Shown here in pieces: positions 30,022 through 34,404 of a stretch of DNA of 64,000 bases. The DNA is from Candidatus Eiseniibacteriota bacterium (GTDB lineage Bacteria > Eisenbacteria > RBG-16-71-46 > CAZAMP01): the NCBI GenBank assembly GCA_965224245.1, contig OZ245046.1, positions 3,648,001-3,712,000 on the forward strand. Direction: 5' to 3'. The position numbers and the translations under genes were made by a program. The notes under the pieces were generated by a model. The model saw only the letters and a program-made list of their open reading frames with translations, did no database searches and had not been told where the DNA came from. The stretch's first letter is position 1. Each line of letters begins with the position of its first letter.

Positions 30022-30824
30022 GGGTCGCGTCGAGCGTCGGGGGGCGCCTCGGCCTCCACGCGTGCGTCCAGACCGAACAGCGCGTTCGCATTCTCGTCGG
30101 TGATCGCCTCCAGGCGCGCCGGATTCATCTCCAGCAGGTCGGCCATCACCGGGATGACCTCCGCGATGAACGCCGGCTCGTTCCGACGCGAGGTCCCGGG
30201 CGCGGGCGCGAGCCACGGACAGTCGGTCTCGAGGAGCAGCCGATCGTGGGGCACGCGGGGAAGGATCTTCCGGTAGCGCCCCTTGCTGCGGGTGACGGCG
30301 CCACCGAACCCGAGGTGGAAGCCCGCGCCGACGATGCGGGGCACGAGCTCGGGTGGCCCGCCGTAGCAGTGCAGCACGCCGCCGACCCGACCGGCGTCCA
30401 TGGCCTCGAGCATCTCGACCACCGCCTCCTCGGCCCCGCGCGAGTGAACGATCAGCGGGAGATCGTGGGCGAGCGCCAGCTCCAGGTGGCACGCGAACAG
30501 CGCGCGCTGGGCGTCGTGGGGCGCGTAGTCACGATGGAAGTCGAGCCCGGTCTCCCCCACGGCGACGACGTCGCGATCGGTCAGGAGGGACTCGAGCGCG
30601 TCCAGGTCTCCCGGAACGTGCCGGGCCGACTCGTGCGGATGGATGCCCAGGGCGGCGTGCACGCGCCGGTTGGCGCGCGCGAGCTCGAGGGCGCGACGAC
30701 TGGATGCGACCTCGATCCCGACCTCGACGACGTGGCGGCACCCGGCCGCGAACGCGCGGGCGAGCGTGGCCTCGCGGTCCCCGTCGAATGGACTCGTCCC
30801 GAGATGGGCGTGCGTGTCGATCAT
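30018..30824 (-). CDS. tatD: TatD-family hydrolase
   Basis: IDTHAH, GIHPH, GETGLD, IVHSR, LHCY, ETDCP, NEP. Confidence 0.95.
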   Translation of the reverse strand: MIDTHAHLGTSPFDGDREATLARAFAAGCRHVVEVGIEVASSRRALELARANRRVHAALGIHPHESARHVPGDLDALESLLTDRDVVAVGETGLDFHRDYAPHDAQRALFACHLELALAHDLPLIVHSRGAEEAVVEMLEAMDAGRVGGVLHCYGGPPELVPRIVGAGFHLGFGGAVTRSKGRYRKILPRVPHDRLLLETDCPWLAPAPGTSRRNEPAFIAEVIPVMADLLEMNPARLEAITDENANALFGLDARVEAEAPPDARRDP

Positions 30825-32350
30825 GGCCGCGAGCGCGTGTCCGGCTGGCTCGCGTTGCCACCCCGGCGGCGCCGGGACCGGCGCCGGCGTCGCCGGGGAG
30901 GGTCGCCGGGCGCGTCGGAGCGATCGGGCCCCTCGCGATCGGGCGCCGATCGGGCGCCTGCCGGCGACGCGGGCCGCTCCCGGTCGGCATCGCCGTCGCG
31001 GGGTCCGGCCCCGCCGGGGCCGGTCACTCCGGCGCGGGCCTCGGCCGACCGTGCGTCACCCCGCCGGCGACGGCGACGGGATCGGCGGCGACGGGGCTCG
31101 CCGTCACGATCGTCGTCCCGGCGAGCGCGTTCCGCCGAACGACCGGCGTCCTCGGCATCGGCGAACGCGACGAGCTCGGCATCGCTCCGGTCGCTGCCCG
31201 ATCGACCGCTCCCGATGTCGCCCGCGTCGGCACGGCGCCTCGCCTCGGCCTCGAGCCGGACCATCTCGACCGGCGAGGGCGTCTCGTCGCCTGACGGGGG
31301 ATCGGACGGGCCGCGCCGGCCCCGTCCCTTGGCCAGGAGCGGCGCCCCTTCGAAGTCGCGCGTCCTGGTGATCGGAATGCGTCCCGAGCGGCGCCCGGGA
31401 TCGGAGCGCTCGGCCGGCGCGTCGTCGTTCTCCCGGCGACCTCGCGCGTTCTTCATGCCGGTGGGCCTGGGATCGGGCTTGTGGCATCCGCTACCGGCGC
31501 CGCCGCGCCCGGGTGCCCCGCGCGGGCGCACCGCGCCGCCGCGCCACTGGCTCCGCGGCACCGGAAAGTCCTCGATCGCGTACTCGGTGACGACGCCCTC
31601 GGCGTTTCGCGTCCTCACGACCTGGCGAAAGTAGTCGTTGCCCGAGACCACGACCAGCTCCCCGCCGATCTCGAACTTGGCGCCCTGCTTCGGGTAGAGC
31701 TTCACGACTTCCTTGTAGAACGGATCCTCGTACATCAGGCAGCACATCAGCCGCCCGCAGCCGCCTGAGATCTTGGTCGGGGCAAGCGCCAGCCCCTGGT
31801 TCTTGGCCATCTTCAGCGTGACCGGCGAGAAGTCCTTGAGCCACGTCGAGCAGCAGTACTCGCGACCGCAGGGCCCGATTCCGCCGATCCGCTTGGCGGC
31901 GTCCCTGGCCCCGATCTGTCGCAGCTCGATGCGGGTCTTGAAGATGGAGGCCAGCTCCTTGACCAGCTCCCGGAAGTCGACCCGCTGCTCGGCGGTGAAG
32001 AAGAACGTGATGAGGTTGCCGTCGTGCTGGCTCTCGGCGTCGATGAGCTTCATGTCGAGGCGAAGCCGCTTGACGCGCTCGCGGCAGATGCGAACCGCCT
32101 CGGCCTCCTCGGCACGGAGGCGGGTCTGGGTCTTCAGGTCGCGAGATGTCGCGCGACGCAGGATCGATCGGAAGCGCCCCAGCTTCTCGTTGGGCTGTCG
32201 GGCCACGGCGATGTGGCGGACCTCGCCGAGATCGACGCCGCGCTCGGCCTCGACGAGCACCTTGTCGCCGGACGCGATCGCGACACGATCGGGATTCACG
32301 AAGTAGTCGAGCCGTTGGCCCTTGAACTCGACCTCGATGGCGTCCGCCAT
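30821..32350 (-). CDS. ricT: PSP1-domain protein RicT/YaaT with a long Arg-rich disordered tail
   Basis: RVDFRELVKEL, RIELRQIG, GPCGREYCC, KISGGCGRLMCCL; SD GAAGGA. Confidence 0.9.
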   Translation of the reverse strand: MADAIEVEFKGQRLDYFVNPDRVAIASGDKVLVEAERGVDLGEVRHIAVARQPNEKLGRFRSILRRATSRDLKTQTRLRAEEAEAVRICRERVKRLRLDMKLIDAESQHDGNLITFFFTAEQRVDFRELVKELASIFKTRIELRQIGARDAAKRIGGIGPCGREYCCSTWLKDFSPVTLKMAKNQGLALAPTKISGGCGRLMCCLMYEDPFYKEVVKLYPKQGAKFEIGGELVVVSGNDYFRQVVRTRNAEGVVTEYAIEDFPVPRSQWRGGAVRPRGAPGRGGAGSGCHKPDPRPTGMKNARGRRENDDAPAERSDPGRRSGRIPITRTRDFEGAPLLAKGRGRRGPSDPPSGDETPSPVEMVRLEAEARRRADAGDIGSGRSGSDRSDAELVAFADAEDAGRSAERARRDDDRDGEPRRRRSRRRRRRGDARSAEARAGVTGPGGAGPRDGDADRERPASPAGARSAPDREGPDRSDAPGDPPRRRRRRSRRRRGGNASQPDTRSRP

Positions 32351-32372
32351 GCGGGCATGTCCTTCGAAAACA

Positions 32373-33518
32373 TCATGCCGGGGACGGAGCGTCCTCGGCG
32401 ATGACATCGGTGAGCGTCGTAAAGAGCGCGAGGGATGGCGTGACGGAGCCTTCGACGGCTCCGACGAGCTCCTCGAGCGCACGCACGCGCCGGGCGATTC
32501 CGGGCACGTCCAGCGTCTCCGATGCGGCGCGAAGCCCGACCAGTGCGTCGTGATTGACGACACCGGACTCCGACACGCCGCACTTCAGACGTAATACGTC
32601 ACGATACCACGTGAGCAGCACCTCGGCCACGTGGCGCACCCGCGGGGCGTCCCAGGCCCGGGAATCGCCCAGCACATCGGTCGACAGGCGCGCCACGAGG
32701 TCGTCCGGGGAGAGCCCGAGGAGTCCCAGAACCCACGCGCGGGTCTCCAGGACCCCGGCGCCTCCGAGGACGAGGGCGCGCGCGACGCTCCCGCCGGCGA
32801 GCGCCGCCACGGGTCCGGCGTCCTTCTCGGGGATCCCGGCTCCGGTCACGAGGAGGTCCCGGATGTCGTCGGCGGGTACGTCCCCGAAGCCGACGCGCTG
32901 GCAGCGCGAGCGAATGGTCGGGAGCACGCGGTGCAGCCGACTGGTCGTCAGCACGAAGACGGTGCGGGGACCGGGCTCCTCGAGCATCTTCAGCATGCGA
33001 TTGGACGCCTCGACGCCGGTGGAGTCCACGCCCGCGAGAACGATGACCTTGCTCCGGCCCTCGAACGTCTTGCGCGAGGCCTCCTGCTTCACCTCCAGAA
33101 CCCACTCGGTGGCGATCGACGGCCGCTTGCTCCAGCTGTACACGTGCAGCGGATCGGCGGCCCACTCGGCGTACAGCCGGCAGAGCGCCCCCTGTGCGGC
33201 GTCGTCGCCCCGTTTGGCGGCCTCTTCCTTCCACAGCGCCGCCGGAAACACCGGCATGACCAGATGGACGTCGGGATGATTGAACGAGGCCGTCTTCCGG
33301 CACGACAGACACGTCCCGCAGGGCCGCCGGGGGGTGTCCGCCTCGCAGTTCAGCGCGGCGGCCAGGGCCAGGGCCGCGGTCGTCTTGCCGACGCCCCACG
33401 GGCCGTGGAACAGATACGCCTGCGAGACCCGATCGAGCCGGACGGCGTCGCGGAGCGCGCCGATCGCGCGGGACTGCCCCCGGACGCGATCGAAGACGAA
33501 CGGCGCGGGACTGGTCAT
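32373..33518 (-). CDS. holB: DNA polymerase III subunit delta'
   Basis: AYLFHGPWGVGK, PCGTCLSC, HPD, NRMLKMLEEP, LPTIRSRCQ. Confidence 0.92.
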   Translation of the reverse strand: MTSPAPFVFDRVRGQSRAIGALRDAVRLDRVSQAYLFHGPWGVGKTTAALALAAALNCEADTPRRPCGTCLSCRKTASFNHPDVHLVMPVFPAALWKEEAAKRGDDAAQGALCRLYAEWAADPLHVYSWSKRPSIATEWVLEVKQEASRKTFEGRSKVIVLAGVDSTGVEASNRMLKMLEEPGPRTVFVLTTSRLHRVLPTIRSRCQRVGFGDVPADDIRDLLVTGAGIPEKDAGPVAALAGGSVARALVLGGAGVLETRAWVLGLLGLSPDDLVARLSTDVLGDSRAWDAPRVRHVAEVLLTWYRDVLRLKCGVSESGVVNHDALVGLRAASETLDVPGIARRVRALEELVGAVEGSVTPSLALFTTLTDVIAEDAPSPA

Positions 33519-34069
33519 GGGGATTCCGACGGCGACGAGGATTGCGCCCGGAGCCACGACAGCGGGTCGAGCGCCTCCGAGCCGCGCCTAGGCTCGAAGT
33601 GCACGCACGAGCCGACCAGAGAGTCGGTCGCGCCCGCGAGCGCGATCGCCGACCCGGCCTCGACCTGGTCGCCCGGCGCCACCAGGATCCTCGATGCGTG
33701 CGCGTAGAGCGTATAGTAGTCGTCCCCGTGGGCCAAGATCACGGTCTTGCCGTAGCCGCGCACCCAGTCGACGTACTCCACGCGGCCCGAGGCCACCGCG
33801 CGGACCGGCTCCCCGGCGGGCGCGCGAATGTCGATCCCGGAGCTCCAGGTCGACGTTCCGTGCAGGGGTGGAGAGCACGGCCGAAGCCGCGCAGGATCTC
33901 GCCGGGATGCGGCCACGCGAGCGTGCGCTTTCCGGCGCCGCTGGGACCGGTCACGATCAGGAACTCGCCCTTGGCGATCTCGAGGTCGACCTCGTGGGAG
34001 CACGTCGAGCTTCGATCCGCCGGGGTACCGCTTGGACACGCCACGAAGCGAGACGATCGCGTCGCTCAC
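33515..34069 (-). pseudogene. Chimeric ftsE'-'envC remnant (ABC ATPase N-terminus fused to an EnvC-type M23 domain) with two compensating frameshifts
   Basis: VSKRY...VL / HEVDLEIAKGEFLIVTGPSGAGK joined directly to RTLAWPHPGEILRGFG / GIDIRA...GYGKTVIL.H...TLYAH...HFE...DP..WL. Confidence 0.8.
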
Positions 34070-34338
34070 GGCGCGCTCTCGCCGGGCGGCAGCACGTCGA
34101 TCCGGCAGTACCGGTCGCGGTCCTTCTTGCTGACGTTACCCGCAGGCACCTCCAGCACCGTCACGCGCCGGCGGACCGTGGGCTCGACCAGCGTGATGCA
34201 ATCACCGGCTCGGACGACGTGGCTGGCCCGGGCGGGCCGATCGTCGACGAGCACGCGGTCGGATCGGATGGCCTTGGACGCCGCCGACCGCGTCTTGAAC
34301 ACGCAGACGGCGTCGAGGAACTTGTCGAGTCTCACCAT
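34066..34338 (-). CDS. S4-domain RNA-binding protein (Hsp15/YabO-like)
   Basis: VRLDKFL...FKTRS.A...ASHVVRAGD. Confidence 0.9.
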   Translation of the reverse strand: MVRLDKFLDAVCVFKTRSAASKAIRSDRVLVDDRPARASHVVRAGDCITLVEPTVRRRVTVLEVPAGNVSKKDRDRYCRIDVLPPGESAP

Positions 34339-34404
34339 GTCCTGCCGTTCGACGCGGGCGTGCGGCTCGACCCGGCTCGCGCTCCGGAACGTCGCCCCTC
34401 GGAC

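Follow-up and report, generated by a model that had tools for sequence, protein, structure and literature searches.

Between a gene for an S4-domain protein and holB, the analysed stretch of DNA (64,000 nucleotides from a Candidatus Eiseniibacteriota genome, here called the window) carries a single open reading frame (ORF) of 184 codons with GTG start and TGA stop (33515-34069, minus strand; ORF table). The locus raises the question whether this ORF is what is left of ftsE-ftsX-envC, an operon for cell separation, and whether the loss happened in the organism or in the assembly. As a whole, the best explanation, to which we assign a probability of about 80%, is a single in-frame deletion followed by two cancelling indels, which would have left a fossil ORF and a bacterium without FtsEX-EnvC.

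Anatomy of the remnant ORF

The reading frames were assigned by tblastn with the FtsE and EnvC proteins of the nearest relative, a member of the same family (G001). The resulting features are listed in Table 1.

Table 1. Features of the remnant ORF and its two neighbours in the window
Feature	Position	Strand	Evidence
S4-domain gene (90 aa, Hsp15-like RNA-binding), upstream neighbour of the remnant	34066..34338	-	Pfam S4, 1.1e-08
Putative FtsE codons 1-24 (MSDAIVSLRGVSKRYPGGSKLDVL), frame of the present ORF	33998..34069	-	tblastn with FtsE residues 1-20 of the nearest relative, 45% identity, colinear with the next piece; GC3 0.88
C run with one extra base (+1 relative to the ancestral FtsE frame)	33996..33998	-	tblastn, one unpaired base
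Putative FtsE residues ~25-46 with the Walker A motif (HEVDLEIAKGEFLIVTGPSGAG-K), in the second frame and not read in frame by the ORF	33931..33996	-	tblastn
Candidate deletion junction interval K-R-T-L, Walker A Lys of FtsE on one side and L-x-W-P of EnvC on the other	33919..33930	-	Comparison with FtsE and EnvC of relatives
EnvC stretch leading up to and into the LytM domain (AWPHPGEILRGFGRALHPC), in the second frame and not read in frame by the ORF	33862..33918	-	tblastn with EnvC residues 303-324 of the nearest relative
One missing base (-1), reading returns to the first frame	33857..33861	-	HP-to-GIDI spacing compared with relatives
Degenerate LytM (M23) domain of EnvC with short Ser/Pro tail, frame of the present ORF	33518..33859	-	Pfam, tblastn
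TGA stop of the remnant, overlapping the holB ATG	33515..33517	-	Sequence, ORF table
holB (DNA polymerase III delta'), intact, downstream neighbour	32373..33518	-	Pfam DNA_pol3_delta2, 3.1e-43; 58% identity to holB of the nearest relative

Both ends of the remnant overlap the neighbouring genes by four bases, GTGA at the S4 stop and ATGA at the holB start, as had been predicted. With the NCBIfam Hsp15 family the S4 gene gave a weak score of 21.3 bits, far below the cut-off of 148 bits.

FtsE residues 1-20 of the nearest relative aligned in the frame of the ORF and residues 21-46 in a second frame (combined Expect 3e-08). Exactly one extra base, at 33997 within the C run, separates the two pieces; the extra C that the original prediction placed here was found as the one unpaired base of the alignment. 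EnvC residues 303-324 also aligned in the second frame, and the same position was matched in the loci of three further relatives (L038, L041 and L043). Residues 324-430 aligned back in the first frame with 62% identity (E 5e-48). Between HP and GIDI, 26 nt are present in the window against nine codons (27 nt) in relatives. Thus, one base is missing, as predicted, and the count in relatives moves its site by a few bases from the proposed position of about 33865 to about 33857-33861.

The GC content by codon position supports these frame assignments. Read in the frame of the ORF, the two outer segments have a GC3 of 0.88 and 0.92, similar to the 0.88-0.91 of the neighbouring genes. For the middle segment, GC is highest at codon position 1 of that frame (0.89), which corresponds to position 3 of the second frame. 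The segment has kept the codon-position signature of its old frame, hence the events appear to be recent. The two indels cancel each other, and the frame runs unbroken from the S4 stop to the holB start without an internal stop.

In the second frame the region 33868-33999 reads SHEVDLEIAKGEFLIVTGPSGAGKRTLAWPHPGEILRGFGRALH, a Walker A region of an ABC ATPase passing straight into L-x-W-P..G.i...FG, a stretch of the kind found ahead of M23 domains. One frame runs from the FtsE part into the EnvC part across K-R-T-L, and this continuity shows that the deletion was in frame. For the junction, FtsE from nine of ten relatives' loci (K-[ST]-[TS]-[LIM]) and ten EnvC proteins ([KR]-G-x-L-x-W-P) were compared. 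K-x-T-L agrees with the FtsE consensus after Walker A in five of the nine relatives and L-x-W-P with EnvC. The breakpoint accordingly lies within these four codons (33930-33919), the shared Leu codon being the limit of placement. Microhomology at this site, as proposed in the original prediction, may have mediated the deletion.

The upstream piece was recognized by Pfam ABC_tran with a value of 0.0025. FtsE is its top NCBIfam family with 25.9 bits, compared with 25.4 bits for other ABC families; the FtsE proteins of the best three relatives gave 27.8-36.7 bits, the paralogues of the genome itself at most 29.6. These scores hardly separate FtsE from other ABC ATPases, and the assignment to FtsE is suggested mainly by position. 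The piece starts directly after the S4 gene, as ftsE does in the nearest relative, and is colinear with FtsE residues 1-46. Profile positions are present only up to about 44 of 214. Nothing of the complete ABC ATPase domain (about 220 aa with Q-loop, LSGGQ, Walker B and H-loop) follows Walker A.

ORF residues 76-169 matched Pfam Peptidase_M23 (E 9.7e-29, profile positions 3-96 of 96). The best five matches among solved structures are the metallopeptidase chain of an FtsEX complex (8i6o_E) and the EnvC-named chains 4bh5, 8c0j, 6tpi and 8hd0; the top NCBIfam families are the amidase activators ActS, EnvC and NlpD. An ABC ATPase N-terminus of FtsE type joined to an M23 domain of EnvC type, the core of the original prediction, was therefore confirmed by tblastn and Pfam.

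Active M23 peptidases carry the motifs HxxxD and HxH, whose residues include the zinc ligands. In the remnant they read SSGID and CVH: the His of HxxxD is replaced by Ser and the first His of HxH by Cys, Asp and the second His being kept. The loss of zinc His ligands described in the original prediction thus concerns only these two His residues. The same pattern was detected in the EnvC of all ten relatives, none of which has a His in HxxxD and all of which have Cys or Ala for the first His of HxH. The LytM part does not look decayed: with nine outgroup EnvC domains it shares 54.7% identity on average, and the intact domain of the nearest relative 52.1%.

The present product consists of 24 FtsE residues, 45 Arg-rich out-of-frame residues and the LytM core without its first strand. 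This strand (LAWP..G.ILRGFG) is missing because the ORF reads 45 codons out of frame; LAWP..GFG..HP is encoded in another frame than the rest, and no single frame holds the whole LytM domain. The in-frame part begins at residue 43 of the 142-residue LytM construct crystallised in 4bh5. By eye, no hydrophobic stretch was found in the N-terminal 70 residues, which are FtsE-derived or Arg-rich and give no export signal; EnvC of the nearest relative has a hydrophobic N-terminus. Residues 1 to about 302 of the latter, and with them the coiled coil and the restraining arm, have no counterpart in the window.

The sections of PMC7668044 drawn on here describe for E. coli that the N-terminal coiled coil of EnvC, which is antiparallel, binds two FtsX periplasmic domains, and that a restraining arm blocks and gates the groove of the LytM domain. 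The residues that hydrolysis requires are absent from the LytM domain. In its free form this domain binds amidases and activates them, and its export to the periplasm is toxic (PMC7668044). FtsX, signal peptide, coiled coil and arm are all missing from the remnant, hence the mechanism, as set out in these sections, cannot operate. Without signal peptide, coiled coil and arm, and with the first LytM strand out of frame, the product cannot act as EnvC. Judged from its sequence, it is probably a fossil that would neither reach the periplasm nor be controlled by FtsEX nor work as EnvC.

The locus in related genomes

The nearest relative has the order surA, S4 gene, ftsE (228 aa), ftsX (295 aa), envC (432 aa), holB, PSP1-domain gene and tatD, and the window shows the same order except for the middle. 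Its best NCBIfam scores are 245 bits for FtsE (cut-off 264.85), 179 for FtsX_Gneg (255) and 126 for EnvC (270), all below the curated cut-offs. The order S4-ftsE-ftsX-envC-holB, for which relatives were to be compared, is thus complete in this genome. Among the ten fetched loci of relatives, ftsX and envC are contiguous in all, and ftsE-ftsX-envC in nine. The S4 gene lies upstream of ftsE in seven of them; holB follows directly in five and lies 2.6 kb off in a sixth.

In 34 of 40 relatives an FtsX_ECD match was detected 1.6-1.9 kb from the best EnvC match on the same contig. Four others have FtsX_ECD on a different contig from the best EnvC-type match (G002, G004, G026, G031), and two are without any FtsX_ECD match (G024, G025).

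Between the end of the S4 match and the start of the holB match, 2.8-3.1 kb were found in four relatives and 4.0 kb in a fifth, compared with 0.55 kb in the window; the whole span S4-ftsE-ftsX-envC-holB covers 2.9 kb in the nearest relative. By comparison of these distances, about 2.3 kb is missing from the locus. The predicted in-frame deletion of the rest of ftsE, all of ftsX and the coiled coil of EnvC agrees with this synteny and with the join in one frame.

The wider gene order is not universal. One locus (L038, G003:C214:4000-14000) has ftsX-envC, no ftsE match upstream and no holB downstream within 10 kb. In two others (L044 and L045, of G037 and G007) an additional 1.2-2.5 kb separates the S4 gene from ftsE, and L045 has a further 2.6 kb or so between envC and holB.

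No sign of the fused form was seen elsewhere. Among proteins of similar length, nothing came closer to the 184-aa ORF than 61% identity over 59% of the query. In the collections searched, no relative closer than G001 (58-62%) was detected. By holB, the best genome contig is that of G001 (58%), and the best metagenome contig reaches 60% and is 1.5 kb long. Among named genomes, those nearest by holB (37-41% identity) come from metagenomes and bear the label Candidatus Eisenbacteria.

The intact frame could also be due to selection. Ribosomes that start at the GTG would have to stop at the TGA overlapping the holB ATG for holB to be translated by coupling, and the second indel would have been fixed as a repair. 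Translational coupling to holB is possible, as judged from the four-base overlaps at both ends, and the deletion is in frame. Either indel by itself would bring reading to a stop at 33739 or 33588, leaving 70-220 nt to the start of holB. A scan of the minus strand between surA and holB revealed no terminator- or promoter-like site. The undecayed LytM part with no excess divergence, the lack of an internal stop and the exactly restored frame speak against a fossil and would also fit continued selection on the ORF. However, when stretches of 45 codons from neighbouring genes were read in a wrong frame, 57% of the trials met no stop (2806 of 4904), and a second indel was fairly likely to cancel the first; the open frame is hence not surprising. 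Furthermore, envC and holB of the nearest relative are separated by a gap of nine bases and do not overlap, thus coupling is not a conserved requirement. Selection for coupling is in our opinion rather unlikely, and a recent deletion with a neutral fossil is the most likely status of the ORF.

Sequencing runs and the rest of the genome

Four public runs of one study (X1-X4) were examined. Contigs were built from each run alone and compared with positions 33200-34400 of the window. X1 and X2 each gave one 16-kb contig over the whole region with no differences, no gaps and a depth of about 11, bridging the junction with more than 6 kb on either side. X3 extends over 33679-34400 and takes in both indels as well as the junction; X4, which derives from a second sample, spans 33938-34243 with the first indel. 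Again, neither shows a difference. In X4 the contigs leave a gap in cover over 33435-33937. The runs probably include the source of the assembly itself and hence test the assembler and not the biology; at the level of contigs, a minor intact variant may be present in the population.

No contig of the four runs agrees with the window on one side of the junction and diverges on the other. Loose contig ends proved to be matches of 20-30 bases to ABC genes of other organisms. An apparent joint of 33398 to 33976 was discarded, since it was supported by no more than 22-letter matches to a foreign contig. Around the locus, only short chance matches were found as repeats, and ftsE and envC share no repeat that could collapse. 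The agreement of the contigs excludes an artefact of the assembler and makes it unlikely that the indels are consensus errors.

If the indels were such errors, the true gene would be an intact in-frame fusion of FtsE residues 1-46 with the whole LytM domain. Both indels lie in short homopolymer runs (CCC and GG), which are typical sites of sequencing errors, and the main contig of 6.45 Mb suggests long reads. But the k-mer contigs of X1, X2 and X3 carry both indels and that of X4 the first, all without a difference, and even the intact fusion would be without a signal peptide. Consensus errors are accordingly considered very improbable as the origin of the frameshifts.

The genome that contains the window has 6.94 Mb in 27 contigs, the largest of 6.45 Mb, and is 97.4% complete and not closed. 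The periplasmic domain of FtsX (FtsX_ECD, PF18075) gave no match on any of the 27 contigs. It is present in 38 of the 40 relatives and in 120 of 124 further phylum members with at least 90% completeness, a count that includes one unpublished genome (G067). The four genomes without a match (G042, G025, G078 and G121) are 91-92% complete. For G025 the EnvC match lies 658 bases from a contig end, so at least this absence looks like an assembly gap.

With FtsX of the nearest relative, tblastn of the whole genome gave no match. Matches of its FtsE did not exceed 41% identity, and EnvC found only the remnant and two weak matches in M23 regions. Neither ftsX nor the 5' part of envC is on any of the 27 contigs. 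The top matches of the FtsE model score higher as MacB or LolD, so the genome has no FtsE orthologue among them; they adjoin permeases of MacB or LolC type or uvrA. FtsX_Gneg (TIGR00439) reached 43.8 bits at best (cut-off 255), in a Lol-type permease. The search for other copies of ftsE, ftsX and envC suggested in the original prediction thus found none by PF18075, tblastn and family scoring.

FtsZ, two Amidase_3 genes and several M23 peptidases, predicted from their motifs to be active, are kept. Eight M23 domains besides the remnant were inspected (G000:C1:2391073-2392719, 1376588-1378258 and six more). Six have His-x-G-[VI]-D, seven an HxH-type motif and none the Ser/Cys pattern of the remnant, so the genome seems to be without any degenerate LytM amidase activator.

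A function of FtsEX might persist in a form too divergent to be recognized or in the missing 2.6% of the genome. Many transporters of MacB and LolCDE type belong to the same superfamily, and completeness is 97.4%. Against this, the same searches find FtsX_ECD in nearly all other genomes of the phylum and the deletion is visible at the syntenic locus itself, which leaves a hidden FtsEX a barely probable explanation. That the operon is intact in the organism and was collapsed or chimerically joined in this draft of 27 contigs, an option raised in the original prediction, is scarcely credible, since the separately built contigs of X1, X2 and X3 cross the junction without a difference, ftsE and envC offer no repeat for it and the lost parts are on no other contig.

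History of the locus and its meaning

According to the preferred reading, an ancestor had the complete operon S4-ftsE-ftsX-envC-holB. One deletion of about 2.3 kb would then have taken out ftsE from just behind the Walker A Lys, the whole of ftsX, and envC as far as the beginning of the LytM domain, leaving the two ends fused in one reading frame. Two subsequent single-base changes in short homopolymer runs, +1 and -1, would have put 45 codons out of frame and cancelled each other, and the organism would now divide without FtsEX-EnvC. We infer the single event, the order of the steps and the loss of function from what was observed: the anatomy of the locus, its synteny, the lack of further copies and the agreement of separately built contigs. 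The predicted loss of FtsEX-EnvC at this locus thus stands, neither FtsX nor an FtsE orthologue nor another EnvC having been found in a genome of 97.4% completeness; it is real and probably recent.

Structures of the FtsEX-EnvC system of E. coli, P. aeruginosa and V. cholerae, which activates amidases, are 6tpi, 8i6o, 8hd0 and 8tzk. The remnant resembles this system in its LytM part, which is nearest to EnvC among solved structures and has the degenerate site of the relatives' EnvC, and in the order ftsE-ftsX-envC kept by relatives. In contrast to it, the remnant retains no more than the LytM core and FtsE residues 1 to about 46, and FtsX, signal peptide, coiled coil and restraining arm are absent. 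About the same part of the protein as in the isolated LytM domain of E. coli EnvC (residues 278-419, 4bh5) is retained, but without an export signal, and in frame only from residue 43 of that construct.

Like ordinary deletion pseudogenes of bacteria, the remnant combines an internal deletion with subsequent small indels and lies as a fragment between intact neighbours. Unlike these, its deletion runs in frame across three genes and its two later indels cancel. At the level of titles and abstracts, no report of a comparable natural collapse of ftsE-ftsX-envC was found in the literature. The remnant is a well-supported gene loss of a known kind and involves no new mechanism.

Since almost every sampled member of the phylum keeps FtsEX-EnvC, the clean natural loss seen here means that cells of this lineage can do without the system, and the lineage is a place to look for other control of septal amidases. 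A wider interpretation, which we regard as improbable, is that of a natural knockout of FtsEX-EnvC in a free-living bacterium with a large genome and no other recognisable degenerate LytM activator. Daughter cells might then separate in an unregulated way or by a different route, or the bacterium might grow as chains or filaments, and the fossil of three genes, kept open by the compensating frameshift, might have no role left but to carry translation over from the S4 gene to the essential holB.

For annotation, the cancelling indels have the effect that the ORF will be called an intact 'M23 family peptidase' of 184 aa, and the loss of ftsEX could pass for incompleteness of the genome. The remnant is also a compact example of an in-frame deletion over several genes that leaves an ORF open between overlapping neighbours.

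Downstream of holB, the PSP1-domain gene (30821-32563, minus strand) has a long C-terminal tail of low complexity, rich in Arg, Asp and Gly, which gave dozens of spurious tblastn matches in relatives. With 6.9 Mb, the genome is the largest among the searched members of the phylum, the others having 2.0-6.4 Mb (rounded).
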